Assembly (NCBI GenBank): GCA_963798465.1
Contig: CAWCTC010000001.1
Coordinates: 528,465-592,464, forward strand
Length of the DNA stretch: 64,000 bases
Source: an uncultured bacterium
Lineage (GTDB): Bacteria; Patescibacteriota; Minisyncoccia; Phycocordibacterales; GWA1-40-21
Reading direction: 5' to 3'
Shown here piece after piece: positions 6,584-58,486 of the stretch. The notes beneath the pieces were generated by a model. It saw only the letters and a program-made list of their open reading frames with translations, had not been told where the DNA came from and ran no database searches. Every line of letters starts with the position of its first letter. Within the stretch, counting starts at the first letter, position 1. Position numbers and translations under genes: made by a program.

Positions 6584-7714
6584 TTAATTTTCATGCTGCA
6601 GGCCGATTTTTATTATTTCATGAGCTATCAGATCAGCTGCATCGCCTTTTATAAAACTCTTTGCACCTTCGCTCATTTTTTTCTGCAGATTGTTATCATC
6701 CATAATTCTAGTAATTTCAGAAAGCAATATATTCGGCGAAAGGTTAATTTCTTCTATGACGATTGCTCCGCCTGATCTCGCATAGTTGTAAGCATTCTGC
6801 CTTTGATGATCTCCATTCGTATCTGCAATCGGAATAATTATGCTAGGAATTCCCCAGTATGCAATTTCAAAAATTGCCGAACCGGCTCTTGAAACAATCA
6901 AGCTTGAAGCGCCTGCAGACATACTCATATTCAAATCGTCAAGATAATCAAACGGTCTGTATCTGTTTTTCAGTTTATTATCTGTCAAAACTACGCCGGA
7001 AGTTCCCAAAACTTCTTCAATATTTGCCTTTCCAACTTGATGAATAACATAATATTTTTCGACAAGAGCCGGTAATATACTCATAATCTGATCATTTATA
7101 ATTTTTGCGCCAAGCGATCCGCCCAAAATAAGTATCGTTGGAATATCTTCCATCAAATTTAAAAATTTTCTTGCATCATCTCTAGCAGGAAGCATTTGGA
7201 TGCTTTTTCTTACAGGATTTCCGGTAACCGCAACTTTTTTGGAATCAAAATATTTTGCGGCTTCGGGATAAGAAACGGCAACCCTTTGTGCAAATTTTGC
7301 CGCCCAGGCATTTGTCCTTCCTGGCGCGCTGTCTGATTCATGTACTACCACAGGTATCCTCAATATTTTTGCGGCAAACAGAACAGGAAAACTTGAATAA
7401 GCTCCTTTGCTAAAAATAACGTCGGGATAAAGATTGAAAACTTTTATTGTCGCGTCTATCACTCCGAAAAATGTTTTGAAAAAATCAAAAAAATTAAGTA
7501 TGGAAAAATATCTTCTGGATTTGCCAGCAGAAATTTTTATATATTCGATATTATTTTCTAAAAGCATATCGGCATCATGCGGAGAATCCGACATATAAAA
7601 AAGCTGTATCGGAAGAAGTTTTTCATCCTTTACGATTTTATTTATCGATTCGGCAACCGCTATGAGAGGATAAAAATGTCCGCCTGTGCCTCCTCCTGTT
7701 AAAAGAATTTTCAT
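6584..7714 (-). CDS. murG: Lipid II-forming UDP-GlcNAc transferase MurG
   Basis: N-terminus MKILLTGGGTGGHFYPLIAV, 376 aa, and it follows ftsW in a dcw-type cluster. Confidence 0.93.
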   Translation of the reverse strand: MKILLTGGGTGGHFYPLIAVAESINKIVKDEKLLPIQLFYMSDSPHDADMLLENNIEYIKISAGKSRRYFSILNFFDFFKTFFGVIDATIKVFNLYPDVIFSKGAYSSFPVLFAAKILRIPVVVHESDSAPGRTNAWAAKFAQRVAVSYPEAAKYFDSKKVAVTGNPVRKSIQMLPARDDARKFLNLMEDIPTILILGGSLGAKIINDQIMSILPALVEKYYVIHQVGKANIEEVLGTSGVVLTDNKLKNRYRPFDYLDDLNMSMSAGASSLIVSRAGSAIFEIAYWGIPSIIIPIADTNGDHQRQNAYNYARSGGAIVIEEINLSPNILLSEITRIMDDNNLQKKMSEGAKSFIKGDAADLIAHEIIKIGLQHEN

Positions 7715-7717
7715 TTA

Positions 7718-7852
7718 CCCGAGAAAATTTTTGCCGATAAAAATCACTGTTTCGACAAAACAGCGATATATGTTATTCTTTTTGATTAATTTTGTCATCA
7801 TTGCGGGTTGTAAATAATAATTTTTAGAAACGTCGACAAAAACTTTAACAGG
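7718..7852 (+). repeat. MITE-like element, family C, copy 1 (imperfect terminal inverted repeats)
   Basis: Termini are CCCGAGAAAATTTTTGCCGA and TCGACAAAAACTTTAACAGG; the reverse complement of the right end aligns with the left end. It is nearly identical to copy 2 at 8982-9117. It fills the ftsW-murG spacer and stops 3 nt from the murG start codon. Confidence 0.85.
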
Positions 7853-7868
7853 TGAATTATTTTTTAAA

Positions 7869-8978
7869 TCAAGCTTTTTTATTAAATCTGGACACGCTTA
7901 AAATTATTCCTATTTGAACCAAAAGTATGAACATTGCGGTTCCTCCTTGGCTGAAAAAAGCCAAAGGCAATCCTGAAAAAGGAACGATGCCCAATACTGA
8001 AGCTATATTTATAAAAGACTGCAGTATCGTAAGTATAACAATTCCGAACACCAAAAGTCCACCGAAAGGATCAACAGATTTTATAGCTATTCTAAAACCG
8101 AAAAATACGAAAAATAAAAATAAGATTATTATAGAAACACATCCGACAAAGCCCAGCTCCTCGCCAAGCACGGCAAAAATCGTGTCGCTTATCGACTCCG
8201 GAAGAAATTGATATTTTTGAATGCTCTGTCCCAAACCTTTTCCAAAAATCTCTCCGGAACCGACGGCGATCAAGGATTGCTGAACTTGATATCCGGCATT
8301 TTGAGAATCGGCTGACGGATGTATAAAAGTTTGTATTCTCGACATGACATACGGTCTGGTAAAAGCCAAAATCGCTATGCAGATTATTCCAAGTGCGCCC
8401 AAAATAAAAACATATTTGATTTTTCCACCGGCAATTATGAACATTGAGATTAGTGCAATACAAATAATTACAAAGGAATCCGTATCAGGCTGAGCCAAAA
8501 GAAGAGCACCGACAATACCCATGATGACAAGCAGAGGCACAAAACCGAATTTGAAAGTTGAAACTTTTTCTTTTATCGATGAAAGCCATGCAGCCCAATA
8601 GACAATTACGCCTATATTCAATATTTCAACAGGTTGGAAAGAAAAACCGAAGATGGAAATCCATCTTTTTGCGAAAGTATTGAGATTTGTCCCGATATGA
8701 GGAACAAAAACCAAAGCAGTAAAAATCAATGAACCTATTAAGATAGGAAAAGAATATTTTTTAAGAATTTTATAATCTATTTTTATAAAAATAAAACATG
8801 CCAGTCCGCCGAGGATTATCCCGAAAAATATCTGCTTGAAAACCACGGATGCAAATTGAGTGCTGTTTTTTGCAAGTATTCCCATGGAAGCCGAAACAAA
8901 AATAGTAAAGCCGATAACCATGAGAATGATTACTATTCCAAGAAAAACTTTATCGATTCCTTTGCTGTTTGATGACAT
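7869..8978 (-). CDS. ftsW: SEDS-family peptidoglycan polymerase FtsW/RodA
   Basis: 369 aa, about 10 TM helices, located between mraY and murG. Confidence 0.9.
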   Translation of the reverse strand: MSSNSKGIDKVFLGIVIILMVIGFTIFVSASMGILAKNSTQFASVVFKQIFFGIILGGLACFIFIKIDYKILKKYSFPILIGSLIFTALVFVPHIGTNLNTFAKRWISIFGFSFQPVEILNIGVIVYWAAWLSSIKEKVSTFKFGFVPLLVIMGIVGALLLAQPDTDSFVIICIALISMFIIAGGKIKYVFILGALGIICIAILAFTRPYVMSRIQTFIHPSADSQNAGYQVQQSLIAVGSGEIFGKGLGQSIQKYQFLPESISDTIFAVLGEELGFVGCVSIIILFLFFVFFGFRIAIKSVDPFGGLLVFGIVILTILQSFINIASVLGIVPFSGLPLAFFSQGGTAMFILLVQIGIILSVSRFNKKA

Positions 8979-8981
8979 TTA

Positions 8982-9117
8982 CCCGAGAAAATTTTTGCCG
9001 ATAAAAATTACTGTTTCGGCAAAACAGCAATATACGTTATTCTTTTTGATTAATTTTGTCATCATTGCGGATTTTTAAATAATAATTTTTAGAAACGTCG
9101 ACAAAAACTTTAGCGGG
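8982..9117 (+). repeat. MITE-like element, family C, copy 2
   Basis: Termini are CCCGAGAAAATTTTTGCCGA and CGACAAAAACTTTAGCGGG. It fills the mraY-ftsW spacer and begins 3 nt from the ftsW start codon (..GACATTTA|CCCGAG). Confidence 0.85.
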
Positions 9118-9118
9118 T

Positions 9119-10195
9119 TTATATTTTTATCAAAGCCAAAATTACGCCGAATATCGCACAGACGATTCCAACGACCCAATATCTCATTGTGACTTTGGAC
9201 GCTGGCCAGCCTTTCGCTTCAAAATGGTGATGGACCGGAGCAACCAGAAAAACCTTTTTACCATGCCTGAATTTTTTTGAACAGACTTGTATTATCACCG
9301 ATAGAGAAGTTACAACTAAAGGAAATGCTATAATCGGCAAAACTGCGATTCCTCTTCCATCGCCCATTGAGTCCGTCATGAAAGCGACTATCGCTAAAGT
9401 GATTGTAAGCGCCATGCTTCCCGTCTCTGACATATAAAATCTTGCCGGCGGAATATTAAACCAGAGAAATGCCAGAATTGCACCGACGAGAACTGCGCAG
9501 AAAGCTGCAAGATTTATCTGATTTTGAAAAAATGCAATACCGGCGTATGCGGCAAAGATAGAAGCAAAAACTCCTCCGGCAAGCCCGTCTATTCCATCAA
9601 TAACTCCGCCTGAATAAATAAATAAAGTTATGAGAACGAAAACAGGAATAAACCATAGGCCCAAGATTGTTTTGCCCATAAAAGGAATGCTTATGCTATT
9701 TACATCCAATTTAAAATAAAACCAAAGAGAAATTAAAAATGAAATTATTCCGACAAAAAACAATCTCTTTTTTAAAGAAAGTCCGCCGGCATAATTTCCG
9801 CCACCGCCTTTTATTTCCAAAACATCATCTACAAGACCTACAATAGCTCCGAGAAAAAGTACAGAAAGAGGAATCCATGTTTGATCTCTGCTTAAAAAAT
9901 CCAGTTTGGAAAAAATACTTCCTGGAAATAAATGGCTGAACAGCCAGAAAACTAAAGTTGTAACAATTGCCGACATCCAAATCAATATTCCACCCATTCT
10001 CGGTGTGCTTACTTCCCTTTCTGCGTGCAAACTGCTGAAAATCGGCGTGCCTCCACCATCTATTGAAACGCTTTTGACTTTCTTCTTCCACATTTTATTC
10101 CTGTATAAAAATTCTGTAAGCAAAGGAGCGGAAAACATTCCGATAATGAAAGCTATTATTGATGGCAGGATTACTTTTACTAAATCGATTTGCAT
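9119..10195 (-). CDS. mraY: Phospho-N-acetylmuramoyl-pentapeptide transferase MraY
   Basis: 358-aa polytopic protein with motifs GLVDDVLEIKGG, VIDGIDGLAGG and APVHHHFE. Confidence 0.95.
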   Translation of the reverse strand: MQIDLVKVILPSIIAFIIGMFSAPLLTEFLYRNKMWKKKVKSVSIDGGGTPIFSSLHAEREVSTPRMGGILIWMSAIVTTLVFWLFSHLFPGSIFSKLDFLSRDQTWIPLSVLFLGAIVGLVDDVLEIKGGGGNYAGGLSLKKRLFFVGIISFLISLWFYFKLDVNSISIPFMGKTILGLWFIPVFVLITLFIYSGGVIDGIDGLAGGVFASIFAAYAGIAFFQNQINLAAFCAVLVGAILAFLWFNIPPARFYMSETGSMALTITLAIVAFMTDSMGDGRGIAVLPIIAFPLVVTSLSVIIQVCSKKFRHGKKVFLVAPVHHHFEAKGWPASKVTMRYWVVGIVCAIFGVILALIKI

Positions 10196-19390: not shown

Positions 19391-19400
19391 TTAAATAAAT

Positions 19401-19437
19401 AAAAATAGGCGGCACGCTTCGCGTGCCGCCTATTTTT
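19401..19437. terminator. Bidirectional rho-independent terminator
   Basis: AAAAATAGGCGGCACGC-TTC-GCGTGCCGCCTATTTTT lies between the convergent acyltransferase and dnaJ genes. Confidence 0.85.
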
Positions 19438-19438
19438 A

Positions 19439-20527
19439 TTATATTCCCTCTTCTTTTAATTTTTCAAAATCTTTTTTCGCTTTTCCAGAAAGTCGGCTTG
19501 GAATTTTGATATTCAATTTGACTAGCAAATCCCCTCTTTTATCAGCCGACGTAGGCACTCCTTTGCCTCTAATACGCAATATTTGCCCGAATTCAGCCCC
19601 TTCAGGAACCTTGAGTTCTATCTCTCCGTCGAGCGTTTTAAGGCTATATTTGGCCCCCAAAATAGCATCGGTAAGTTTGATGTTCAATTCCGTCACAAGA
19701 TTTTTCCCTTCTTTTTTAAACAGCGAATCTTTTCTGACATGAATTTTTATGTACAAATCTCCAGAGCTTCCGCCTTTCAAAGATTCTCCCGCGCCAGAAA
19801 GTCTAACAGTTTCTCCGTCATTTATATCTGCTGGAATTTTCACGGAAAATGATTCTTCTTTTTTTTCAATTCCCGATCCAGAACAGTTCGAACATTTTTC
19901 TTTTGGAATTTTTCCAGTTCCTTCGCAAACTTCGCAAACTCTTTCCGTCACTATCGGACCGAGAAAAGATCTTTTTGTTTCGCGGACTCTTCCTTGTCCT
20001 CCGCATTCATGGCACATCTGCATCTGCGTTCCGCTTTTTGCACCGGTTCCGTTGCAGACTTTGCATTTTGAATTTTTAGTCAGGCGAATTGTTTTTTCAA
20101 CTCCAAAAACAGATTCAGAAAAAGTGAGCTCCAAGTCAACATGAATATCTCTTCCTTTTTTCGGCCTGCTTCTTTGCGACGAACCTCCGCCAAAAAAATC
20201 TCCAAAAATATCGCCGAGATCAAAATCTACATTTTGTCCGCCTTGGAAACCGGAAAAATCAAATCCTTCAAAACCATTACCACCTTGGTATTGCTGTCCT
20301 CCAAATCCGCCAGCACCAGGTCCAGCACTTCCGTATGAATCATATTGTGCCCTTTTGTTGTCATCAGAAAGCACACTGTAAGCTTCACTTACTTCTTTAA
20401 ATTTTTCGGCATTTCCGCCTTTGTCCGGATGATGTTCCATTGCAAGTTTTCTGAAAGCTTTTTTAACATCTTCCTTACTTGCACTTTTATCAATACCGAG
20501 TGTTTTGTAATAATCTTTGTTGGCCAT
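19439..20527 (-). CDS. dnaJ: Chaperone DnaJ
   Basis: J-domain HPD ([10 protein letters not shown]), a G/F-rich linker, and four CxxCxGxG zinc motifs. Confidence 0.97.
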
Positions 20528-20541
20528 GATGTTTTTTGTAT

Positions 20542-20570
20542 GTCTTTGCGAGCGTAGCGAAGCAATCTAG
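20542..20570 (+). repeat. GTCAT-hairpin-CCAG module (A type), forward orientation; left arm flanking the GIY-YIG gene
   Basis: GTCTTTGCGAGCGTAGCGAAGCAATCTAG. Its end overlaps the GIY-YIG stop codon. Confidence 0.85.
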
Positions 20571-20857
20571 ATTTGATCAGTTAAATCATTCCATTCAGGA
20601 TTATTTTTTTCAATTAAATCTAGCTTTTTTCTTCTTGAACCCGCTTTTATTTGTTTTTCTCTTTCTATCGCACCTAACATTATCTCGCATGCTTCGTAAT
20701 ATACTAATGTATGAATGTTATATTTTTTTGTAAAACCATCGTTTTTATTTTCTTTATGCTCTTTTACTCTTCTCTTTAAATCAGAGGTTACTCCTGTATA
20801 TAATGTTCCATTTCTTTGACTTGCCATTATATAGATACATGGAATTTTGTCTTTCAT
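20567..20857 (-). CDS. Small stand-alone GIY-YIG nuclease (UPF0213/YhbQ-like)
   Basis: 96 aa with PCIYIMASQRNGTLYTGVTSDLKRRVKEHK (GIY..YIG-type block) and a conserved E in LGAIEREKQIK. It is inserted between dnaK and dnaJ. Confidence 0.85.
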   Translation of the reverse strand: MKDKIPCIYIMASQRNGTLYTGVTSDLKRRVKEHKENKNDGFTKKYNIHTLVYYEACEIMLGAIEREKQIKAGSRRKKLDLIEKNNPEWNDLTDQI

Positions 20858-20873
20858 AATTTTTCTATTTTCC

Positions 20874-20936
20874 CTGGATCACCACGCTTCGCTCGTGATG
20901 ACAAGCCTGGTTTGCTTCGCTTTCGCTCGCAATGAC
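20874..20936 (-). repeat. Two tandem GTCAT-hairpin-CCAG modules in reverse orientation (right arms flanking the GIY-YIG gene)
   Basis: CTGGATCACCACGCTTCGCTCGTGATGAC (20874-20902) and CTGGTTTGCTTCGCTTTCGCTCGCAATGAC (20907-20936). The second ends exactly at the dnaK stop codon. Confidence 0.85.
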
Positions 20937-22850
20937 TTACTTCTGACCTTCCTCTCCTTTCTCTTTGTATTCTGCGTCTTTGATATTGTCTCCAGATTTA
21001 TCCCCTGCCTTTTCTTCAGTTCCCGCTGTTTGTCCAGGAGCTTCTTTCTGAGCTTTTGCCATTGCTTCACCGATTTTTTGCATCTCTGTTGAAAGCGCTT
21101 CTGTTTTTGTTTTAATTGCGCTAGCATCTGTGCCATCTTTTACAGCTTTCAAATCGGAAATTTTATCTTCGACTCCTTTTACAACATCGGCTGGAATTTT
21201 TCCGCCATTATCTTTGATAGCTTTTTCTGCAGTGTAAATCATCTGTTCGGCAATATTTTTTGCTTCAACAGATTCTTTTTTCTTTGCATCTTCCGCCGCA
21301 TTCATTTCAGCTTCTTTTTTCATTCTTTCAATATCTTCTTTTTTCAAACCGGAGCTTGCTTCAATTCTGATTGATTGTTCTTTTCCAGAAGTTTTATCTT
21401 TTGCTTTAACATTCAAGATTCCGTTTGCATCAATGTCAAAAGTAACTTCAACTTGTGGCATTCCTCTAGGTGCTGGTGGTATTCCATCAAGAATAAATTT
21501 ACCAAGGCTCTTGTTATCAGACGCCATTGGTCTTTCTCCTTGAACGATGTGAATTTCTACAGAAGTTTGATTATCTGCAGCGGTTGAAAATACTTGGCTT
21601 CTTGAAGTTGGAATTGTTGTATTTTTTTCTACAAGGTGCGTTGCAACTCCGCCCATGGTTTCAATTCCAAGCGCAAGCGGAATAACATCAAGCAAAAGAA
21701 CATCTTTTACATCACCTCTCAAAATTCCTCCTTGAACCGCGGCGCCAAGCGCGACAACTTCATCAGGATTTACTGAAAGGTTTGGCTCTCTTCCGAATAA
21801 TTCTTTTACAGCAGCGACGATAGCCGGCATTCTTGTCTGACCTCCAACCATTATTACTTCGTTCAAATCTGCAATTTTAAAAGGCGAAGCGTCAATCGCT
21901 CTTTTTGCAATCATGATTGATCTGTCGATGAATTCTTTCGTTAGATTTTCTAAAGTCGCTCTTGAAAGTTTTATCAGCAAATGTTTTGGACCTGAAGCGT
22001 CTGATGTGACAAATGGAATATTTATTTCTGTTTCAAGTGCCGTTGAAAGTTCAATCTTTGCTTTTTCAGCAGCTTCATCAAGTCTTTGAAGTGAAAGCGG
22101 ATCTTTTCTCAAATCGATTCCATTTTCTTTCATGAATTGATCAGCCATAAAGTCTACGATTTTTCTGTCGATGTCACGGCCTCCCAAGTGCGAGTCTCCG
22201 TCAGTTGAGCGAACTTCAATTACAGAATCTCCGATTTCAAGAATTGAAATATCGAAAGTTCCTCCGCCGAAATCGTAAACTGCGATTTTTTCATTTGTTT
22301 TTTTGTTGAGTCCGTAAGCGAGAGCTGCGGCCGTTGGCTCGTTTATAATTCTCAAAACATTTAATCCGGCAATCTGTCCAGCATCTTTTGTCGCTTGTCT
22401 TTGCGAGTCATTGAAATAAGCCGGCACTGTGATAACAGCGTCAGTTATTTTTTCTCCGAGTCTTGCTTCCGCATCAGCTTTTAATTTTCCCAAAATCATC
22501 GCGGAAATTTCTTCCGGTCTGTATTTTTTATCAGCCATTGTTATTTCAACTCCGCCATTTGCAGCTTTTGAAATATCAAATGAGACTGAAGTCTTGTCTT
22601 TCTGAACTCCTGGATCATCGTATTGATGTCCCATGAATCTTTTTACCTGAAAAACTGTATTCTTTGGATTCGTGACAGCTTGGCGTCTTGCCAAAAGTCC
22701 GACAAGTTTTTCGCCTGTCTTTGTCGTAGCGACAATTGACGGAGTCGTTCTTGCACCTTCCGCATTTTCAATTATCTTCGGAGCATTTCCTTCCATCACA
22801 GCCATCGCTGAGAATGTCGTTCCTAAGTCTATTCCTAATATTTTTGACAT
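20937..22850 (-). CDS. dnaK: Chaperone DnaK (Hsp70)
   Basis: 637 aa with [19 protein letters not shown] and VGGQTRMP motifs. Confidence 0.98.
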
Positions 22851-22893: not shown

Positions 22894-23052
22894 GTCATTC
22901 CCGCGGATGCGGGAATCCAGGTTAAATTGTATGTCTTTGCGAGGAGTATAGTGACGAAGCAATCCAGAATTAGTAGCGTCGCACTTATAGGACGGTTGTG
23001 CGACGTGACTTCGCTAAGTCAACCTGGGTTGCCACGCTTCGCTCGCAATGAC
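22894..23052. repeat. Composite cluster of three hairpin modules plus an extra hairpin
   Basis: The parts are: 22894-22920 GTCATTCCCGCGGATGCGGGAATCCAG (B type, forward); 22933-22967 GTCTTTGCGAGG..GACGAAGCAATCCAG (A type, long loop, forward); hairpin GTCGCAC..GTGCGAC at 22978-23004; and 23024-23052 CTGGGTTGCCACGCTTCGCTCGCAATGAC (reverse). Confidence 0.8.
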
Positions 23053-23387: not shown

Positions 23388-23445
23388 ATCTTTGCGAGCG
23401 AAGCGAAGCAATCCAGAACCTAGTTTGCTTCGCTTTGCTCGTAAG
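23388..23445. repeat. Head-to-head pair of A-type modules (right arm degenerate)
   Basis: ATCTTTGCGAGCGAAGCGAAGCAATCCAG-AAC-CTAGTTTGCTTCGCTTTGCTCGTAAG. Confidence 0.8.
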
Positions 23446-23560
23446 AAATTTTGGTCGCTCACATATTCACCTACTACCAAAATTAGTATATCAAAAAAAA
23501 TTTTAAGAACAAAGTTCTAAGTATCTAAGTACTAGATCTAAGTTACAAAAGAGATAAGTG

Positions 23561-25396
23561 CTAAGACTTGCGAGGCACACGGAACACAAACTCGTAGTTG
23601 TCAACCCACCTATCGTCAGGCTTAGCGTAGAAGCTGTCCAGCCCCAGCTTGCCATCGTCGTTGCGGTACACATCGAACACGCCCGGGTAGCCACCGGAGC
23701 CGGAAATTTGTTTCATGCCTACTCTAAAATAATCTCCATTTGGTTGGTCGAGATATTGTAAACGAAGTTGAGGTCCGACTTCTGCTGGACATAATTCTAA
23801 GCCGAGCTTTTTTGCTTTTTCATATATTTCATCTGTCGTGGCTCCATTTGGAAAACCTAAATCTTTTACTGAGATTCTAACTAGATTGAGATGCTCTTGT
23901 TTTTTTGAAGTAGTAAAATCACGATTATCCATCATTGATTTGGCATAATCAGAAATCCAAACTTTATTTTCTTCCATTTCCTTGATTAATTCTTTTTTAT
24001 TTTTTCCACCTATTTCAGCTTCCATTTTCTTTATGGAACTTTCAGGAAATGACGTGTAAATATTTTCTATATCTGTTTTAAAAATATCTTTAAAGAGTGG
24101 GCCGATATAAGCTTTGGTATCTTTTGATATTTCTTTTTCACTATGAGCGATTTGCTCTGGTTTACAGTCTAGAACAATAGGCGCATCTTCTTGCGGATTC
24201 CTTTCTGATATGATTTCTTCAATTCTCGGGTCTCTTTGATAACCAAAGCCTTCTATTTTATTATTAATTTCATAAATAAATATAAGCTCATCTTTGTTTA
24301 GTTGTTCACCTTTTTTAGTTTTATTTTCTATTTTTGTGAGAAGCTTCATGTCTGCTTCTTTTTTTTCATATTGTTTTCCATCGGGGAATTTGGCAAGTTT
24401 TTCTTTTACAACATCACCAATATATGGGTCCATGTTTTGGTCATGAGCTATACCTCTTACTTCTCCAATATTATCTCCTTGCATACGAATAGCAACTCTA
24501 GGAATAGTTGGCTTTCCTTCTTTATCATTTGAATAATATACATAGAAGTCTCCGCCTTTTAGCTGAGCTTCTGCTGTTGATTCTCCTGCTGTACACCAAC
24601 CAGTTCCGTAACCTTGAAGTGAATTTACAAGTGGCATGTGATCTGAGTTTTGGTCGTATTTAATCCATTCACCTTCTGTTGTTTCAAGTTCGTTCTTTTC
24701 TGTTGGAGTTACTTTTTCTATGGCATAAGCGTAAAGTTTACCGAAGCTCGCACCATCTAGAAGTTGTTTTAATTCTGGATTATTATCTGTGGCTTCTATC
24801 TTTTCATTATTTGCTTTTTTGATAATTGCATCTACAACGTACGCTAAAGCTTCTCTGTTTATATCAGGAAATGGTGCAACTGTGCCTTTGTCTCTTTTTG
24901 CAAAAGTGTGTTTTTCTTTATCAAACGTAGAAAGCTTGAGCATGCTTGTGAATGCCCAATACTTTGCCCACATAGGGTATGCGTCTGCGTCTGGAGAAGT
25001 GAAATAATTAGTCCAGTTGTCTAAGGTGGTTTCTTGGTCTTTTACAACAACTTCACTGAGTTGCTTTCGCATTTCTTCTGTAATATCAATGTCGCCGTGA
25101 CCTTGTTCACGAGCTAATCGCTTTTGGTTTTCATAATAACCTTCTGGGATTTCATTTGGGTCAATGACATATTCTTTATGATAATATTCTTTGATTCTTT
25201 CTAATACACGAGGATCATCTCTGTGTCCTGTGTGAGTTTGTTTTATGACTTCAAGCCAGTCAGATATCTTTTCTGCTGGTTTTTGTGAGGTTTCTTCATC
25301 ACGGGCTTCGAGTCTTTCTTTTTCATGTTCAACAGCTTCACTTGTGTGAAGTTTTGGGTCTCTCTTGTGTAAAAATTGTTCGCCGAAGTTTTCCAT
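23561..25396 (-). CDS. Hypothetical protein (611 aa) with compositionally foreign 3' end
   Basis: A long clean ORF with no signal peptide and a charged, helical N-terminus. It has a central block GYGTGWCTAGESTAEAQLKGGDFYVYYS and no family I can name. Confidence 0.6.
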   Translation of the reverse strand: MENFGEQFLHKRDPKLHTSEAVEHEKERLEARDEETSQKPAEKISDWLEVIKQTHTGHRDDPRVLERIKEYYHKEYVIDPNEIPEGYYENQKRLAREQGHGDIDITEEMRKQLSEVVVKDQETTLDNWTNYFTSPDADAYPMWAKYWAFTSMLKLSTFDKEKHTFAKRDKGTVAPFPDINREALAYVVDAIIKKANNEKIEATDNNPELKQLLDGASFGKLYAYAIEKVTPTEKNELETTEGEWIKYDQNSDHMPLVNSLQGYGTGWCTAGESTAEAQLKGGDFYVYYSNDKEGKPTIPRVAIRMQGDNIGEVRGIAHDQNMDPYIGDVVKEKLAKFPDGKQYEKKEADMKLLTKIENKTKKGEQLNKDELIFIYEINNKIEGFGYQRDPRIEEIISERNPQEDAPIVLDCKPEQIAHSEKEISKDTKAYIGPLFKDIFKTDIENIYTSFPESSIKKMEAEIGGKNKKELIKEMEENKVWISDYAKSMMDNRDFTTSKKQEHLNLVRISVKDLGFPNGATTDEIYEKAKKLGLELCPAEVGPQLRLQYLDQPNGDYFRVGMKQISGSGGYPGVFDVYRNDDGKLGLDSFYAKPDDRWVDNYEFVFRVPRKS

Positions 25397-25435: not shown

Positions 25436-25496
25436 GTCTTTGCGAGCGAAGCGAAGCAATCCAGAACCTAGTTTGCTTCGCTTCGCTCGCAATGAC
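25436..25496. repeat. Perfect head-to-head pair of A-type modules (60-nt palindrome)
   Basis: GTCTTTGCGAGCGAAGCGAAGCAATCCAG-AAC-CTAGTTTGCTTCGCTTCGCTCGCAATGAC. The 20-nt arms TTGCGAGCGAAGCGAAGCAA and TTGCTTCGCTTCGCTCGCAA are exact complements. It ends exactly at the grpE stop. Confidence 0.9.
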
Positions 25497-28010: not shown

Positions 28011-28039
28011 CTGGTTTGCTTCGCTTTCGCTCGCAATGA
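28011..28039 (-). repeat. Solo A-type module (reverse orientation) in the rpoA-rplQ spacer
   Basis: CTGGTTTGCTTCGCTTTCGCTCGCAATGAA, ending 2 nt from the rpoA stop codon. Confidence 0.8.
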
Positions 28040-28041
28040 AA

Positions 28042-36307: not shown

Positions 36308-36380
36308 GTCATTCCCGCGGAGGTGGGAATCTATTCTTAAAAATTAATCAATGCTGGATTCCCACCTCCGCGGGAATGAC
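36308..36380. repeat. Head-to-head pair of B-type modules with 22-nt spacer
   Basis: GTCATTCCCGCGGAGGTGGGAATC ... CTGGATTCCCACCTCCGCGGGAATGAC. The 24-nt arms are exact complements, and each arm contains ATTCCC-N8-GGGAAT. Confidence 0.9.
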
Positions 36381-36997: not shown

Positions 36998-37864
36998 TTA
37001 TTTCTTTCCGAATTTTTCCCTGCAATGCTCGCAAAGTCCGTTCACTTCATCCTGGATAGATTTTATTTTTCTGTCATCAAAGTTGACGCTCTTCAATAAT
37101 TCGGTATTCAAAAGATTTTTGGACAATATTATTCCTTTTGAAAGAAACAGATTCTTATCAGATGTTGTCAGCGTCGTCAGAGCTGTCAGAGGAATAAGCT
37201 CGTATTTTTCTATCATGTCATGAAGATTATTGTCATAAGGATAATTCCATCCGACAAATTTTAAGGCAGGCTGGCATTGGCCATACTGAATAGCTGTCGC
37301 ACTGAATTTTGTATTTGTAATCACCCAGCCTTCGGTCAATTTTCTTTTTTCTCCGCCATAGAAATATTCCTGTCCAAAGATATCGTCGTATCTGGCTTTG
37401 ACATAAAGAACAATTTTCAAATCCGATTTCAGATTGAAATCTGTGTGGAATTTCGCTTCAACCATTATAAGCTCGCCCGGTTTCCAAGCAACTATGTCAA
37501 CTTCATGCGGAACGCATTTTCCCTGGACTATCTGATCCGTCAAAGTTTCATAGCCTTCAGCTTTAAAAATCTCTGCAACAAATTTTTCAAAAGGAAAACC
37601 TGTCGGACCAAGCTGGGCTATGGCTTTTTTTAAAGAATATCTGACGGCGATAGGCCTCTGGTTTTTTTTCAAAATTGAAAAAGCCTGCCTGTAAATATCT
37701 TGAGTTGAAACAACCAGTTTTGTTTTTGCTTCCAAACTTATTTCAGATACGACGCGAGAAATAAGATCATCCGTCGCACCGGCTTTCTTTAGAGACATTT
37801 CAAGCTTTTTGTAATCAAAAAGCTCTTTTTCTCCATTATTTTTTATAACGTAAAATTCATTCAT
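36998..37864 (-). CDS. ATP-cone domain fused to a PD-(D/E)xK (Mrr-like restriction endonuclease) domain
   Basis: N-terminal VIKNNGEKELFDYKKLEMSLKKAG (ATP-cone-like). The central FEKFVAEIFKAEGYE..HEVDIVAWKPGELIMVEAKFH gives a D..E-x-K arrangement. There is a C-terminal CxxC. Confidence 0.65.
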   Translation of the reverse strand: MNEFYVIKNNGEKELFDYKKLEMSLKKAGATDDLISRVVSEISLEAKTKLVVSTQDIYRQAFSILKKNQRPIAVRYSLKKAIAQLGPTGFPFEKFVAEIFKAEGYETLTDQIVQGKCVPHEVDIVAWKPGELIMVEAKFHTDFNLKSDLKIVLYVKARYDDIFGQEYFYGGEKRKLTEGWVITNTKFSATAIQYGQCQPALKFVGWNYPYDNNLHDMIEKYELIPLTALTTLTTSDKNLFLSKGIILSKNLLNTELLKSVNFDDRKIKSIQDEVNGLCEHCREKFGKK

Positions 37865-37873
37865 GAGATTTAT

Positions 37874-38001
37874 CCGAGAAAATTTTTGTTGATGAAAATG
37901 TGTTGATGTTATATGACTTATACTTTTATGCAGATTTATCTTTTAAAAATGGTTCCTCTATCAGTTAATCATTTTCAACACGTCAACAAAAACTTTAACG
38001 G
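37874..38001 (+). repeat. MITE-like element, family C, copy 3 (divergent interior, longer inverted termini)
   Basis: CCGAGAAAATTTTTGTTGATGAAAATG ... CATTTTCAACACGTCAACAAAAACTTTAACGG. It begins 9 nt from the start codon of the ATP-cone/Mrr gene. Confidence 0.8.
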
Positions 38002-38031
38002 ACTAATAATAACAAAGATTGCTGCCGTCTG

Positions 38032-44172: not shown

Positions 44173-47100
44173 TTATTTTGACATATTTCCTGTTGGAAGA
44201 TTTGTCGGAGCGCTTGGCGTTTTCGGACCACTCATCGGCGCTTTTGGAATATTTGGAGTCTTATTATTTTTTCTGTAGAAGAATATCAAACCTATCATAG
44301 CTATTAAGACAATTACTATCAAAGCTACCATCGGCTTGTTTGGAATATTTGAGAAACCTTCTGCAACGGCTGCGAACAATCCTGCATTATTAGTTGAAGT
44401 TGCAACTGATGATGTAGAATTTGTCGATGTCGCCAATGAAACTTGTTCATTGTTGCTTGTTGTAGCAGAAGAATTGAATTCTCCTACTCCTGCTGGAATC
44501 GTTATTCCTGTGTCTGGAGTTCCGGAAATTGCTTCAGATGTTCCTGTTGTATTTGCAATAGTTGTGGTTGATGCAACTGGTGCTGTTGAAACTATCGGAG
44601 TAACTGCATTTACGATAACTGTTCTTGTCGCAGATGAAGTGTTTCCGGCTTTATCAGATACTGAGTAAACTACTGAATATGTTCCTGGAACATTCATATT
44701 GATTGAACTTACAGCATTTATATTAGATGTAATATTTCCATCAACATTATCATTTGCTGTCGCTCCCGCATCTACATATGAATCGCCGACATTTATATTC
44801 GCTGGATTTGCTCCGAGAATTGTAATAACTGGCGCAACAATATCTTCTGAAGATGGTGTTGTATTTGTAAATGTAGGTGTTGGAATAACTCCTGATGCTG
44901 TTGAACCTCCGTTGACGGGATTAACTACTGGTGCTGCGACAACATTTACTGTTCTTATAGCTGTTGCAACATTTTCTGCTGCATCGCTTGAAGTGTAAGT
45001 TATTGTATACGTAGCAACTACGGTTGTATCAACCGTTCCTGAAGTTGTTACTGTTGTTGAGGTTGCATCAAACGCATCATAAGCTGTTGCGCCTGCATCT
45101 GTGTATAGATTTCCAACTGTAACATTTACTGGGTTTGAACCAAGAATCGTGATTACCGGTGGAACTGTATCTTCTGTAACAACATTATTTACTGTAACTG
45201 CATAATTTGCTGTGAATGATCCAACTGTTACCGTCAAAACTTCATTTGGATTTGCAACTGAAGAATCAAATCCTGAAATGTTTGAATCACTGATATCATT
45301 AATTGTTGAAGTTGAATTATCTGAATATGTTCCTGTAACTATCATTCCTGTGATATCAACCGCTGAATCACCAACTGTGTAAACTGTTTTGGTTGGCAGA
45401 GTTGTGATTGCGATTGATTTTAATGTTGGAGCTGGAATTGAACCTGAACTTACAGAAATCGTGTAGGTTGCTGTTTTTCCACTAACATTAATTGTAAGAG
45501 TTTCGCTTGAAGTTGCAGCCGAAGAATCAAATCCTGAAATGTTTGAATCACTGATATCATTAATTGTTGAAGTTGAATTATCTGAATATGTTCCTGTAAC
45601 TATCATTCCTGTGATATCAACCGCTGAATCACCAACTGTGTAAACTGTTTTGGTTGGCAGAGTTGTGATTGCGATGCTTGATAGTGTTGGAGCTGGAATT
45701 GGGTTTGAATTAACTGTAACTGTTACTGTAGCTGATATTGTTGTTGATCCAGCTGTTCCTGTAATAACAGTTGTTCCTGTTGCAGAAGCTGTAAACAAAC
45801 CGCTTGCATCTATATTACCAACTGAAGTATCTGAGCTAGACCAAGTTACTGAAGCATTTATTGGATTACCAAATTGATCAGAAGTTGAAGCTGTGAATTG
45901 TGTAGTTGAACCAACTGACAATGTTAATGGTGAAGCTGAAATAGTAATTGATGATACGACTGGAGTTGGATCTGAAAAATCTGAAACTGTAACCGTTACT
46001 GTAGCTGATATTGTTGTTGATCCAGCTGTTCCTGTAATAACAGTTGTTCCTGTTGCAGAAGCTGTAAACAAACCAGTTGAATCTATATTACCAACTGAAG
46101 TATCTGAACTAGACCAAGTTACTGCTGCAGAAATTGGATTATTATTTTGATCCAAAGTTATTGCTGTGAATTGTGTTGTTGAACCGACTGACAATGTTAA
46201 TGGTGAAGCTGAAATACTAATTGATGATACGACTGGAGTTGGAACACTTCCATTAATCACAACCGTATAAGTTGCTGTTTTTCCGCTGACTGTAATTGTC
46301 AAAACTTCATTTGGGTTTGCAACTGAAGAATTAAATCCAGAAATGTTTGAATCACTGATATCATTAATTGTTGAAGTTGAATTATCTGAATATGTTCCTG
46401 TAACTATCATTCCTGTGATATCAACCGCTGAATCACCAACTGTGTAAACTGTTTTGGTTGGCAGAGTTGTGATTGCGATTGATTTTAATGTTGGAGCTGG
46501 AATTGAACCTGAACTTACAGAAATCGTGTAGGTTGCTGTTTTTCCACTAACATTAATTGTAAGAGTTTCGCTTGAAGTTGCAGCCGAAGAATCAAATCCT
46601 GAAATGTTTGAATCACTGATATCATTAATTGTTGAAGTTGAATTATCTGAATATGTTCCTGTAACTACCAATCCTGTTATATCAAGTGAATCACCAACTG
46701 TGTAAACTGTTTTTGTTGCTGGTGAGGTGATTGCGATTGATTGCAATGTTGGTGCTGGAGGAATGGCTGCAAAATTTGCAGTGACTGTAATATCTCCGGC
46801 TACTGCTAGATCAGTTCTTGTTGCTGTAAGAACTCCGTCGCTCCAATTTGAGAATTGGAATCCAAAATTTGGAAATGCTGTTACTGATGTTCCATTTGCA
46901 CCAGAGGCAACAACTTGAGTTGAAGATCCTGTTATAGAACCGTTACCATCAGTTGTGTAAGTAAGTGTAAATGAAGCTGGAGTTCCAATTGAACTTATTT
47001 CTGTTGGAACTGTAATCGTTGTAGTTGTTCCATTTATTGTAATAGTACCGCTATCAATCATGCCGTTCAAAATTACTGCATTAGTTGTTGTTGCATTTAC

Positions 47101-50100
47101 AAGAACTGTTCCTGTAATTGTTGAACCTGAATCAACTACGTTTGTAAGTGTTGAACTTGCAACTGTTGAGCCCGTAAGATTTGAATTCGTTGAAGTTGAA
47201 TCTGATATGACAACATTATTTAATACTGAATTTACAAGATCACTGTTTGTTGAAGTTGAATTTGTAAGTTGTGAATTATCAAGTGTTGAGAGAGTTACAG
47301 AACTTGATGCAACATTTGAACCATTGCTAATAGTTGAAGTTGCGATAGTGCTCAATGTTATTGTTGAAGCATCTATCGTTGAACCAGAGACAGTTGAAGT
47401 CGCAACATAAGAATGATTTGAAACTGTTGTGTAGTAAATATTTGATGCATAAATTTGTGAGTTTGTACTTGTTGAATGAATAAACTTATACAAAGTTAAT
47501 GGATCAATTGTTGAATATGCAATATAACAATCTGTTGCAAAATAATTTTCTACATCAGAATTTAATATAGTACATCTTGCAATGTCATCATTTGATAAAG
47601 TTGAGTTTGTAGAAACAACTTGATCAAGGTTTGTATCATCAACGGTTGTGTTTGTAACTGTTGAATTATTTACATTCCAGAATGTTGAAAGTGTTGAGTT
47701 TGTGATTGTTGTTGTTCCTGTTGTTGTTGCAATTGGAGCAAGCAAAGATTCTGCAAGTGATGGTGAATACAAGCTGTAGAAGATTCCTCCCATAGTTGAA
47801 TTCGTTATCATAACTTGTGAATCAGAAACTATGAATGGTCCATAACTTGTAGTTGTTGAAATATTTCCAGCATTATCTATTGCTGCAACATGGAACCAAA
47901 GGGTGCCAAAACCAGAATCAGTAGTTGTTGTGGCAGTTGTTGTTGAAACTCCAACTGTTCCTGTAACTATTTGAGTTGCGTTTGAATTATCCCAAAGGTA
48001 TTCATATCCGGCCAATCCAGATTCTGAATCTATTGAATTCGTCCATGAAATATTTGCTGAAGCGATTATCGTACCTGTTGCACTTGCATTTGTAATGACA
48101 GGTGTTGTTGGTGCGGTCGTATCAGGAATTACTACATTTGAAACAATAACTGTTCTTGTCGCTGTTGCAACATTTCCTGCTGCATCGCTTGAAGTGTAAG
48201 TAATTGTATATGAACCGATAGTATTTACATTAACTGTTCCAGTTGCTGTAACTGCTGTCGATGTTCCATCGTATGCATCGAACGCTGTTGCGCCTGCATC
48301 AATGTAAAAATCACCGACAAATATATTAGTTGGATTTGCTCCAAGAATTGTTATTACTGGCGCAATCGTATCAGGAATAATTACATTTGAAACTGTAACA
48401 GTTGTTGAAGCTGAAAATGCTCCAGCTGTTCCAGTTATTGTAGTTGTTCCGGCAGAAAGTCCGATGAACAATCCGCTTGCATCTATCATACCGACAGATG
48501 AGTTTGAACTAATCCAAGTTGTTGTAGCTGGGAATGGATTTCCAAATTGATCTTTTGTTGTTGAAGTAAATGTTGTTGTTGCTCCAACTAATATATTTGG
48601 ATTTAATGGTGCAATGCTGATTGAAGCAAGTGCTGGTGGAATAACTGCATTGTTTACACTTATCGTATAAGTTGCAGTTGATGTTCCAACTGTGATTGTC
48701 AAAACTTCATTTGGGTTTGCAACTAAAGAATTGAATCCTGAAATGTTTGAAACATTTATTGGTTCTGTTGAAGTTGAACCGTCAGAATATGTTCCTGTGA
48801 CAACAAGTCCAGTGATATCAAGTGCGTCGCCGACTGTGTAAACTGTTTTGTTTGCTGGAGTCGTGATTGCAATTGATTGCAATGTTGGAGTTGAAGTTGC
48901 AGCAGATACTGTTACAAGAGTTGTAATCGGCATGAGTGAACCTGCTGATGCAGTTATCTCAGTTGTTCCAATTGAACTTGCTGTAAATATTCCGTTCGCA
49001 TCAATTGTTCCGACAGCATTATTTGTGTTTGACCAAGTTGTGGTCGTTGCAAATGGCTGACCAAATTGATCCAAAGTTGTTGAGACAAAAGTTATTTGTT
49101 CTCCAACTGTAACTGATGGATTTAGCGGTGAAATACTCATTGATGTAAGTACTGCTGGAACAGCGCTGACTACAACTTCTCTTGAAATTGTAGAAACATT
49201 TCCGGATAAATCTGAAGAAATGTAATTTACCGTATATATACCGACATTATTGGTATTAACAGTTCCAAATATGGTAACTGGTCTTACTCCGTCAACCAAG
49301 TCGGTTGAAGAAGCTCCCTGTTCTACATATGTATTTCCTACGGATAGATCAAGGACAGCTGGTCCTATCAAGGACATTGCTGGTCCTGTTGTGTCCTTTA
49401 TAACAACCAGAGACGTAGCGGTTGCAACATTTCCTGAAAGATCTGTTGCTGTCCAAATAACTGTTGAAGTTCCAAGTCCGAATCCTGCTGGATTATAGGT
49501 AATAATTGGGCTTGTACTTGAGTTATCTGTTGCTGTAGCCTGTACTAATACTGGCGTTGTTGTTGTTCCTGTTGCTTCAAATACTTGAGTAGCTGGAACT
49601 GAAATGACAGGAGCTATTGTATCTACAACATTTACTATTCTTGTAGCTGTTGCAACATTTCCTGCTAGATCTACTGAAGTATAATCTACTGCATATGTTC
49701 CCAAAACTGAAGTATTTACTGAACTTGATGCTGTAAATGTAAGTGGAACTCCTGAATTATCAGTAACACTGACACCTGCATCTGTATAAAGCGTATTTAT
49801 TTGAACATTGGCGGGATTTGATCCAAGTATTGTTATAACTGGAGCAATCTTATCAATATTTGAAATTGTAATTGTCCTTGATGAGAAGTTTCCTGCTACA
49901 TCCGTTGCTGTGAACGTAACTGTTCCGTTGTTTGAGAAATCAGCTGTTGATGTTGCACCTGAATTTATTATTGAAGCTATTGTAGAAGTTCCTACAATAT
50001 TTCCTTCATTTGTAGTTGCAGTAACTATGACATCTTGATTTGTTGATGAAGTTGCATATGGAAGCACTGTAATTATTGGTGCGACTTTATCAATGTTTGA

Positions 50101-57453: not shown

Positions 57454-57525
57454 TCGGAGCGCCGGGATTTGAACCCGGAGTCACATGAACCCGAATCATG
57501 CATGTTACCGTTACACTACGCTCCG
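57454..57525 (-). tRNA. tRNA-Pro (anticodon CGG)
   Basis: Hand-folded cloverleaf: CGGAGCG/CGCTCCG acceptor, GTGT/ACAT D stem, CATGA-TTCGGGT-TCATG anticodon arm, CCGGG-TTCAAAT-CCCGG T arm. CCA is not encoded. Confidence 0.9.
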
Positions 57526-57675
57526 ATATTTTTCTTGTGGTCACAAATAAAATTACTGACGTAATTTTTTCGCGACCTCGGCTCACCATTTTTGCCTTTG
57601 CTTCGCTAAACAAAAATATGGCTGCGCCTTCCACAAGATCATAAAATCTAAAGCAGTTTAGATTTTATGATCTTG
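57526..57675 (-). repeat. Family D element downstream of tRNA-Ala(CGC)
   Basis: A 50-nt hairpin (57630-57679) starts inside the tRNA 3' end (TCCACAAGATCATAAAATCTAAA-loop-TTTAGATTTTATGATCTTGTGGA). Conserved stems follow, then GGTCGCG..GTCA-loop hairpin..TGTGACC, and it ends in CCACAAG, a 7-nt copy of the tRNA 3' end. Confidence 0.7.
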
Positions 57676-57746
57676 TGGACCTAGGCAGAATCGGACTGCC
57701 GTCTCGTCAATGCGAATGACGCGTTCTACCACTGTACTATAGGCCC
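57676..57746 (-). tRNA. tRNA-Ala (anticodon CGC)
   Basis: GGGCCTA/TAGGTCC acceptor with G3:U70, anticodon arm CGTCA-TTCGCAT-TGACG, T arm GGCAG-TCCGATT-CTGCC; 71 nt. Confidence 0.88.
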
Positions 57747-57898
57747 AATTTTATTGTGGTCCCGAATAAATTTCCTGACGGAAATTTTTCTTGACCATGA
57801 CTTGCGGTTTTTGCCTTTCGCTTTGCTCAAACAAAAACATCGCTCCGTCTTCCACATAGTAGATAAAATCTGCAGTAGTGCAGATTTTATCTACTATG
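57747..57898 (-). repeat. Family D element downstream of tRNA-Ala(GGC)
   Basis: A 52-nt perfect hairpin (57851-57902) includes the tRNA 3' end. It is collinear with the 57526-57675 element, and the substitutions are compensatory in two stems (GCG..CGC vs CCA..TGG; TTTCC-GTCA-GGAAA vs ATTAC-GTCA-GTAAT). Confidence 0.7.
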
Positions 57899-57971
57899 TG
57901 GACCACACCGGGATCGAACCGGTCGCCTCTTCCATGCCATGGAAACGCTCTACCAAATGAGCTAGCGGCCC
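57899..57971 (-). tRNA. tRNA-Ala (anticodon GGC)
   Basis: GGGCCGC/GTGGTCC acceptor with G3:U70, anticodon arm TTTCC-ATGGCAT-GGAAG, T arm ACCGG-TTCGATC-CCGGT; 73 nt. Confidence 0.9.
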
Positions 57972-58097
57972 TTTGCGCCAAGTGAGTATATTATAAAAAA
58001 TCATAAAAATCAAAAATAGAATAATAAAAAAAATTATGTTATAAAGTAATCGTGCACGGGCGATTAGCTCAGTTGGTTAGAGCATACGATTCATTCA

Positions 58098-58214
58098 CCC
58101 GAGAAAATTTTTGGACATTTAGCTCAGTTGGTTAGAGCATGCGATTCACATTCGCAAGGTCACAGGTTCGAATCCTGTAATGTCCACACATCATCGTCCA
58201 AAAACTTTAACGGG
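58098..58214 (+). repeat. MITE-like element, family C, copy 4: the same inverted termini, but the interior is tRNA-Val
   Basis: CCCGAGAAAATTTTTGGAC ... GTCCAAAAACTTTAACGGG. The termini can pair over 19 positions with 3 mismatches. Confidence 0.75.
58113..58186 (+). tRNA. tRNA-Val (anticodon CAC), nested inside the interrupted tRNA
   Basis: GGACATT/AATGTCC acceptor, GCTC/GAGC D stem, TGCGA-TTCACAT-TCGCA anticodon arm, ACAGG-TTCGAAT-CCTGT T arm; 74 nt. Confidence 0.9.
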
Positions 58215-58254
58215 CAAGTTCGTAAGGTCACAAGTTCGATTCTTGTATCGCCCA

Positions 58255-58486
58255 CAGACAAAAAACAAGATGAATATGAATACTTGCAATATTCAGCTGT
58301 TTTTGGCTGGGTGATACAAGAATCGAAAGATCGGAAGTAATTTTTTCAGCAGAAAAAATTACTGAGTCGTGGTCGCGAAAAATTTCGAGCAACCTAATTT
58401 TCTTGAGCGAAGCGATTAGAAAATGGGAGTACTCTTGTGGTAGACGGCGAGAAAATTATTTGTGACCGATTCTTGTATCGCCCACA
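58255..58486 (+). repeat. Family D element downstream of the interrupted tRNA, with inverted and direct copies of its 3' end
   Basis: The direct repeat CGATTCTTGTATCGCCCACA occurs at 58237-58256 and 58467-58486. An inverted copy, TGGGTGATACAAGAATCGAA, lies at 58308-58327. GGTCGCG (58368) and TGTGACC (58461) are shared with the 57526 element. The last 75 nt form a tRNA-length 'ghost' starting AAGCGATTAG (the real tRNA starts GGGCGATTAG). Confidence 0.7.

Follow-up and report, generated by a model that had tools for sequence, protein, structure and literature searches.

Why does a nuclease gene lie between dnaK and dnaJ, enclosed by inverted copies of a short palindromic repeat, and is its product the partner of that repeat? 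The locus belongs to a 64,000-nucleotide (nt) stretch of DNA from an uncultured bacterium (GenBank assembly GCA_963798465.1, contig CAWCTC010000001.1, positions 528,465 to 592,464), hereafter the window, to which all position numbers refer. Homologous loci from relatives, found on metagenome contigs, are given L-numbers. At 36% G+C the window is AT-rich; it lies on a source contig of 732,962 bp, whose best relatives among named lineages are Paceibacterota, Yonathbacteria and Moranbacteria. Calling of open reading frames (ORFs) places dnaJ at 19439-20527 and dnaK at 20937-22850, both on the minus strand, with a 409-nt spacer between them (20528-20936). A first-pass annotation had assigned a 96-aa stand-alone GIY-YIG gene to 20567-20857 (minus strand) within this spacer, with correct coordinates, and had proposed its product as the partner nuclease of the repeats. 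We find that the locus is a further member of a known system, the Ssn nucleases and their hairpin repeats (SRMs), in a Patescibacteria-like host. Sequence comparison makes it very probable that the product of the ORF belongs to the Ssn family (cd10448) and that the 27-35-nt modules around it are the cognate SRMs.

The Ssn system is laid out in main-text passages of Chenal et al. (Nat Commun 2025; PMC11893778), to which all statements about that paper here are limited. There, the Neisseria repeat NTS is given as CGTCATTCCCGCGMAVGCGGGAATCYRG, and SsnA as a 94-aa single-domain GIY-YIG protein (CDD cd10448, GIY-YIG_unchar_3) whose gene is flanked by NTS. Under the paper's homology criterion (tblastn E < 1e-10 to SsnA), ssn homologues adjoin repeats across many phyla, 71% having a repeat nearby and 42% having repeats on both sides (PMC11893778). 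SsnA binds the repeat solely in single-stranded form, with the cut immediately upstream; for cutting, the GTC in front of the palindrome matters, and for binding, the C that follows it (PMC11893778). Four family members have published binding and cleavage data, and the characterised members do not cut double-stranded DNA. The same passages liken the 'NTS-ssnA-NTS' layout to an insertion sequence, with IS200/IS605 and REP/RAYT as comparisons, propose that Ssn controls the recombination of SRM-flanked DNA, and leave open whether NTS-ssn-NTS units are or were mobile (PMC11893778).

The window protein resembles this family in size, domain content and sequence. Its only Pfam family is GIY-YIG (PF01541, E 2.6e-15, residues 7-78), and tblastn finds one GIY-YIG gene in the 64 kb. 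A search of an N. gonorrhoeae chromosome returned a single tblastn match (E 7e-25), a 94-aa ORF with NTS flanks; BLASTP aligns the window protein with it at 55% identity in an ungapped stretch of 87 aa (E 1e-35). Residues Y9, Y20, R30, E67 and N86, among them the catalytic tyrosines and the metal-binding residue, are invariant in 26 homologues and align with the gonococcal protein. The gonococcal sequence comes from PLSDB, in which two 2.17-Mb N. gonorrhoeae chromosomes (NZ_CP119140.1 and NZ_CP119142.1) are filed as plasmids.

The proposed partnership of nuclease and repeat is one that has been established experimentally for homologues (PMC11893778), and the locus described here is a rediscovery of an association already published in 2025. 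The first-pass remark that this was 'not an established function' was out of date, because the association, the biochemistry and the analogy with insertion sequences and REP/RAYT all appear in main-text passages of that paper (PMC11893778). Its label 'UPF0213-type' was likewise misplaced, since solved UPF0213 proteins match only remotely (1zg2 at E 1.8e-6 and 1ywl at E 0.13, as against E 1e-35 to the Neisseria protein). Members of UPF0213 such as E. coli YhbQ and B. halodurans BH0048 (PDB 1zg2) do share the format of a stand-alone GIY-YIG domain of about 100 aa, and we know of no repeat association for them. A PDB sequence search with the window protein returned remote UPF0213 and UvrC matches only and no solved Ssn.

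The gene is bounded by the repeats on both sides. Read in the direction of the gene, the spacer consists of the dnaK TAA, GTCATTGCGAGCGAAAGCGAAGCAAACCAG, GCTT, GTCATCACGAGCGAAGCGTGGTGATCCAG, 16 nt, ATG...ssn...ATC TAG-ATTGCTTCGCTACGCTCGCAAAGAC, 14 nt and the dnaJ ATG. Two modules therefore stand 5' of ssn in sense orientation, and one inverted module stands 3' and holds the ssn stop codon. The first of the sense modules, GTCATTGCGAGCGAAAGCGAAGCAAACCAG (20907-20936, minus strand), adjoins the dnaK stop and forms the outer boundary of the inserted unit in comparisons with empty sites. The second, GTCATCACGAGCGAAGCGTGGTGATCCAG (20874-20902, minus strand), has a variant stem that folds as an 8-bp hairpin (-4.8 kcal/mol), and it is present in L005 and absent in L002 and L004. 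The module after the gene, GTCTTTGCGAGCGTAGCGAAGCAATCTAG (20542-20570, plus strand), overlaps the end of ssn with its last four bases, so that the TAG stop is part of the module, and is identical or near-identical in L001-L005 and L167. All three arms had been located correctly, with the right arms in opposite orientation; the left arm and the reverse complement of the right arm differ by five changes (four substitutions and one indel), not by the four counted earlier. As in the published system, oriented hairpin repeats with a 5' GTC and a 3' C-YRG stand on either side of the gene (PMC11893778, main-text passages).

These arms belong to a larger family of modules of the form GTCWTT...AAWCYAG. 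Counting paired halves only and leaving out single half-sites, the window holds 14 modules, 11 of them within 20.5-28.1 kb. On a crude longest-ORF map, 13 of the 14 are intergenic, and many adjoin a stop codon. All but one fit [GAT]TC[AT]T..stem..[AT]C[CT]AG, the module at 36308-36334 ending in CTAT; GTC is kept in all but three, which start with ATC or TTC, and the C-YAG tail in all but one. The modules retain the two published determinants, GTC before the palindrome for cutting and C right after it for binding. No match to the core TTGCGAGCGWWRGCGAAGCAA is expected by chance (100 dinucleotide shuffles). Single half-sites with up to two mismatches number 32 against a shuffle mean of 12, which alone is not significant. 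A purely structural search, which required GTC, 5-6 or more nested pairs and CYRG, was rejected: it misses the modules of type A (defined below), with their 4-5-bp stem, and in relaxed form it performs at chance level.

Two sequence types coexist in the window, type A (GTCWTTGCGAGCGAAGCGAAGCAAWCYAG) and the NTS-like type B (GTCATTCCCGCGGAKGYGGGAATCCAG). One type B copy, GTCATTCCCGCGGATGCGGGAATCCAG (22894-22920, plus strand), departs from the Neisseria NTS core solely at two loop positions and at the base preceding GTC, and folds strongly (-9 kcal/mol, z -4.6, ViennaRNA DNA parameters). The window repeats are also intergenic, clustered and placed around other genes, as in the main-text description of the Ssn repeats (PMC11893778).

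The association of gene and modules holds beyond the window. It had been expected that homologous genes would carry the same arms and that repeats and gene would occur together across genomes, and both expectations are borne out. Flanking arms are present in 7/7 relatives that have the gene at dnaK|dnaJ; their Ssn proteins share 81-100% identity with the window protein, and each of these syntenic loci also has one to six further modules nearby. Every homologue of at least 81% identity with examined context lies in the dnaK|dnaJ spacer, with arms in each for which DNA was available. Two 70%-identical homologues lie elsewhere, both with type-A arms: L171 between livG and livF, two ABC ATPase genes, and L169 between asnB and a methyltransferase gene. 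The arms-plus-gene unit thus occurs in at least three genomic contexts. Where the gene is missing from the syntenic locus, modules are absent in three of six cases (L006, L019 and L028), the single match in a fourth (L012) is dubious, and the other two (L008 and L015) have one or two.

The same association is visible at greater distance. We considered 80 homologues of 52-66% identity from many phyla, including Sphingomonadaceae, Legionellaceae, Rickettsiales, Nitrosomonadales, Dehalococcoidia, Nostoc and Saccharibacteria. A module, mostly canonical NTS (GTCATTCCNGCG..CGGGAATCCAG), is found within the approximately 5-kb locus in 51/80, within 300 nt of the gene in 36/80 and on both sides in 25/80. 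A correctly oriented module lies no more than 200 nt upstream in 27/80 of these loci, while the background of 0.19 modules per kb (both strands) predicts about 2%. In the 25 two-sided loci, the modules closest to the gene converge in 11, diverge in 8 and run in tandem in 6; those of Neisseria are divergent. Several database homologues (P0038, P0063 and P0083) have N-terminal extensions that resemble translated modules.

Several observations weigh against this assignment of protein and modules. Single type-A arms are weak hairpins (-2.2 to -3.3 kcal/mol, z above -1.1, ViennaRNA DNA parameters), no better than shuffled sequences, which makes recognition of type A by Ssn an extrapolation. The dominant repeat, with its outer stem of 4-5 bp, also escapes the published SRM pattern, HGTCWYN(0-2)YYVSBRHN(0-5)WNVSBRGN(0-2)RNCYNB, which has no match in the window (shuffle average 0.01); the module at 22894-22920 misses it solely through its loop bases. 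The pattern is too strict for the window copies and was therefore left aside in counting them. Types A and B coexist, yet the 64 kb contain one ssn gene. Finally, the gonococcal 94-aa ORF has no annotated record behind it, and we infer that it is the SsnA orthologue from its size, its uniqueness in the genome and its NTS flanks. With regard to hairpin strength, GCGAAGC, which lies inside type A, forms an unusually stable DNA mini-hairpin that ViennaRNA-type parameters may underrate. Motifs as divergent as type A are missed by the published search pattern, so that published censuses probably include too few of them.

If the window protein acts as its relatives do, a mechanism can be proposed. 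By analogy with the Neisseria and Wolbachia enzymes, it would ignore duplex DNA and RNA. On single-stranded DNA, supplied by incoming transforming DNA, replication forks or a displaced strand, it would bind the short stem of a module together with the C after the palindrome. It would then hydrolyse the module strand only, a few nt 5' of the conserved GTC. In this genome, the modules occupy short intergenic spacers, often right after a stop codon, and bound both the nuclease gene and variable 'cargo' genes, and the arms-plus-gene unit is a discrete insertion or deletion relative to close relatives. Cleavage of single-stranded DNA by the window protein, specificity for type A and the biological role are all predictions drawn from this analogy, and spread of the repeats is an alternative to the published role in recombination control. 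If the window enzyme cuts the type-A motif, it would add a further specificity to the single-strand-cutting toolbox proposed in main-text passages of Chenal et al. (PMC11893778).

The locus differs from the published system in several respects, apart from the stem of its dominant repeat. The host is Patescibacteria-like, a phylum that is not named in the main text of PMC11893778, and the Ssn system is thereby extended to an ultra-small genome of this kind. The gene is embedded in a heat-shock operon, grpE-p99-dnaK-ssn-dnaJ, where p99 is a conserved 99-aa gene. Its arms are convergent with GTC outward, whereas those of Neisseria ssnA are divergent. Lastly, empty, pair-only and filled alleles are documented here, and we found none reported in the main-text passages of PMC11893778.

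The arms around the gene recur elsewhere in the window as pairs. Most arms in this lineage belong to two subtypes, alpha (GTCATT..GCAAAC[CT]AG), in sense orientation and adjoining the upstream stop, and beta (GTCTTT..GCAATC[CT]AG), in antisense orientation; in both, the outer base pair is mismatched (A.A or T.T). The arm after the gene starts with GTCATT instead in L011, L027 and L166. Around the gene, GTCATTGCGAGCGAAAGCGAAGCAAACCAG is the alpha arm and GTCTTTGCGAGCGTAGCGAAGCAATCTAG the beta arm. Head-to-head pairs have the same arm order as the flanks of the gene, alpha followed by inverted beta. The pair at 25436-25496, which adjoins the grpE stop and is also present in L002, L004, L005 and L166, consists of beta at 25436-25464 (plus) and alpha at 25468-25496 (minus), and its two arms fold together into a single long hairpin (-28 kcal/mol, z -10). 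It had been called perfect: each arm is indeed an intact module, but the arms differ at 3/29 positions (90% complementarity) and are separated by 3 nt. In a second pair (23388-23447), beta at 23388-23416 (plus) faces a degenerate alpha at 23420-23447 (minus) with seven differences. Upstream of dnaK, the long-loop module GTCTTTGCGAGGAGTATAGTGACGAAGCAATCCAG (22933-22967, plus), which has a counterpart at the same place in L004 and L005, converges with GTCATTGCGAGCGAAGCGTGGCAACCCAG (23024-23052, minus) around a 56-nt non-coding segment. An NTS-like pair converges across 19 nt between the UDG and SOD genes (36308-36334, plus; 36354-36380, minus). Convergent pairs overall form a continuum, enclosing 3, 19, 28, 56-97 and about 300 nt. 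A solo alpha module, TTCATTGCGAGCGAAAGCGAAGCAAACCAG (28011-28040, minus), lies right after the rpoA stop, and a possible degenerate module, GTCATTCCCGTGCAGACGCAATCCAG (63374-63399, plus), the exception to intergenic placement, is apparently within an ORF and uncertain.

The first-pass annotation had placed the nuclease gene in the 'loop' of one palindrome. The arm order around the gene does match that of the pairs in this lineage, but the layout is not a rule of the family, given the mixed orientations in distant loci, and other genes are enclosed too. A 611-aa ORF (23561-25396, minus) lies between the two head-to-head pairs, that at 23388-23447 being on its p99 side. It has no family in Pfam, NCBIfam or PADLOC, the sole PADLOC match being a marginal one to UzuA (E 0.004). 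The ORF is absent from L005, the closest relative (DnaK 98% identical), and from L002 and L004, all of which have one head-to-head pair between grpE and p99. Alignment shows the ORF flanked on each side by the pair plus a leader of about 25 nt up to the ATG, an approximately 85-nt direct duplication. It looks like a recent insertion of cassette type, and represents cargo and not part of the nuclease unit. In the grpE-p99 spacer of L015 (497-1047), a 154-aa NUDIX-like ORF lies between convergent modules. The arms around both of these ORFs argue that the nuclease gene has no privileged claim to the 'loop'. Repeats around variable genes agree with the clustering described for Ssn repeats in main-text passages of PMC11893778. 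Also in L015, the grpE ORF reads through a module and ends in ..VIARNEAIQ. The sequence TATTTCTT on both sides of 25436-25496 was considered as a target-site duplication and rejected: it belongs to the larger duplication that arose with the 611-aa insertion, and L002, L004 and L005 lack it.

Comparative alleles at two operon spacers bear on the mobility of NTS-ssn-NTS units. Empty dnaK-dnaJ sites had been anticipated in relatives and exist: the spacer is 9-20 nt long and lacks a module in L006, L019 and L028, whose DnaK proteins are 89-91% identical to that of the window, and in L007. In L025, the spacer holds a solo type-B module. The livG-livF spacer is found in all three states. It is 26 nt long without a module in L174, carries a gene-less convergent pair, its arms 28 nt apart, in L176, and has the pair plus the gene in L171; L174 and L171 share a neighbouring protein at 96% identity and flanks at 85-88% DNA identity. 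Because of these alleles and the empty dnaK-dnaJ spacers, the arms-plus-gene unit behaves as a discrete insertion or deletion between close relatives. This modestly strengthens the idea, itself unproven, that the unit is or was mobile, and nothing here shows that the nuclease mobilises it.

We built a neighbour-joining tree from GrpE, p99, DnaK and DnaJ of the metagenome contigs (Kimura distances, 500 replicates). Occupied dnaK|dnaJ loci were monophyletic in 0/500 replicates. The empty locus L006 was sister to the occupied L004 in 377/500, and a fully supported clade without the gene (L008, L012 and L019) was nested among occupied loci. To account for this patchiness, either losses must have been clean, or gains repeated, or recombination involved. 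Comparison of filled with empty alleles revealed no target-site duplication at either dnaK|dnaJ or livG|livF, where AT-rich, diverged spacers could mask short ones.

A stronger claim would be that the convergent SRM-ssn-SRM unit is an autonomous transposable element whose gene-less pairs resemble miniature inverted-repeat transposable elements (MITEs), with Ssn excising and spreading it through single-stranded hairpins in the manner of IS200/IS605 or REP/RAYT. We consider this unlikely, although a number of observations are in its favor. The alpha/beta arm order common to gene flanks and gene-less pairs is that of terminal inverted repeats, and the spacings of convergent pairs form a continuum. 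Spacers at two independent sites are variously empty, pair-only or solo, and filled, the tree separates occupied loci and unites an empty locus with an occupied one, and the unit has at least three contexts. Moreover, the GTC ends point outward, so that cuts 5' of each arm would match the two outer boundaries. The evidence on the other side begins with the missing target-site duplications and the single gene copy in the window, where several near-identical copies would be expected. That homologues of at least 81% identity with examined context are all at dnaK|dnaJ implies long vertical residence at one site. The two cuts would fall on opposite strands, unlike in peel-and-paste transposition, and GIY-YIG is the fold of a hydrolase, not of a recombinase or transposase: GIY-YIG enzymes are hydrolytic and form no covalent intermediate for strand transfer. 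Other genes, namely the NUDIX-like ORF of L015 and the 611-aa ORF of the window, occupy the same 'loop' position, and the nearest arms are divergent in Neisseria and in 8/25 distant loci. The patchiness itself comes from neighbour-joining trees on metagenome contigs and could be mimicked by recombination.

A related and likewise unlikely proposal is that the unit is mobile by a mechanism of a new type, in which a hydrolytic GIY-YIG nuclease acting on single-stranded DNA is combined with host repair. Gene-less pairs would then be non-autonomous derivatives and entry points for captured cassettes, such as the 611-aa ORF with its approximately 85-nt duplication of pair plus leader and the NUDIX-like ORF between arms in L015. 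If true, small Patescibacteria genomes would carry an integron- or MITE-like system of gene turnover at operon spacers.

Like REP/BIME sequences and their RAYT enzymes (IS200/IS605-like Y1), the modules are short, oriented extragenic palindromes that often form inverted pairs, and the gene of an enzyme that recognises hairpins in single-stranded DNA is flanked by its own repeats. A single-copy, vertically stable gene is also common to both, as is a scenario of domestication. The folds differ, however: Ssn is a hydrolytic GIY-YIG protein and RAYT an HUH/Y1 protein with a covalent intermediate. To our knowledge, no transposition chemistry has been described for Ssn. The Neisseria dRS3/NIME arrays and other bacterial MITE-like repeats (Correia, RPE) resemble the window modules in bounding short non-coding segments (here 56-97 nt upstream of dnaK) and in marking variable gene insertions; only the NTS subset of dRS3 corresponds to the Ssn motif, and Correia elements and RPEs have greater length and show no sequence relationship to it.

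Could the gene instead be a selfish homing gene, whose nuclease cuts gene-less pairs so that repair from an occupied allele copies the gene in? The gene lies exactly between two arms that are contiguous elsewhere, the livG-livF spacer is pair-only in L176 and pair plus gene in L171, and GIY-YIG is a classic homing-endonuclease fold, with the catalytic domain and selfish-element flavour of architecture known from I-TevI-type enzymes. The group I intron endonuclease model TIGR01453 matches weakly, in line with this idea, but at 21.8 bits against a cut-off of 56.05 and over residues 8-41 only, and identity as a GIY-YIG homing endonuclease was rejected. Unlike homing endonucleases, the window protein has no DNA-binding domain or extension and no intron or intein context. 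Empty dnaK-dnaJ alleles lack any pair, at least five gene-less pairs or convergent sets in the window are unoccupied despite the presence of the gene, and characterised family members do not cut double-stranded DNA according to main-text passages of PMC11893778. We therefore regard homing as very improbable.

Least probable of all is a reading of the modules as common intergenic hairpins of the REP kind, serving as mRNA stabilisers, attenuators or recombination hot spots, that were spread in another way and are only incidentally adjacent to a GIY-YIG gene: their position at gene 3' ends, in sense, right after stop codons and inside operons would suit it, as would the unrelated cargo genes they bound and the unrelated hairpin elements in the same dnaK-dnaJ spacer of other relatives, but they lack the T-runs of terminators, oriented modules lie upstream of distant homologues far above the predicted 2%, gene and modules co-occur in syntenic loci, and main-text passages report binding and cleavage for four family members (PMC11893778).

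A reading of the modules as terminators was likewise rejected, given the lack of a T-run and a single strong intrinsic terminator in the operon, which directly follows dnaJ (19398-19440). A terminator scan found no terminator-like site between dnaK, ssn and dnaJ, and these genes are probably co-transcribed, because the only strong terminator lies after dnaJ. At gathering thresholds, Rfam identified five tRNAs in the window and nothing at the modules.

Small palindromic insertions appear to have a hot spot in the dnaK-dnaJ spacer. Hairpin elements other than SRMs occupy it in L008 (3423-3501), L013 (255-348), L015 (3421-3501) and L017 (3426-3501), for example GGCGGGAAAAGGTCGAACCTTGGGAATTCAAAAAGGTTCGACCTTGAGGAGCC. 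In L012 (3400-3501) and L016 (626-1044), an element has inserted at the very start of dnaJ. A short remnant of the original start is left (ATGGCCAATAAAGACTACTAT in L012), after which come a hairpin and a new start codon that keeps the KDYY codons. The spacer of a more distant relative, L021 (3057-3501), carries GC-richer SRM-like modules, GTCACCCCTGCGAAGGCAGGGGTCCAT and the inverted GTCATTCCTGCGAAGGCGGGAATCTAT, together with a 109-aa ORF.

Elsewhere in the window, a 2365-aa ORF (44173-51270, minus) consists of repeats of 237-300 nt, both tandem and dispersed (D1-D13), and probably encodes a giant surface protein of repetitive sequence. Upstream of three different genes stands a repeated, conserved non-coding segment, about 40-160 nt in length (7705-7868, 8969-9133 and 37860-38018; D14-D16) and may be a shared regulatory region. 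The five tRNAs found by Rfam form a cluster on both strands at 57454-58643.

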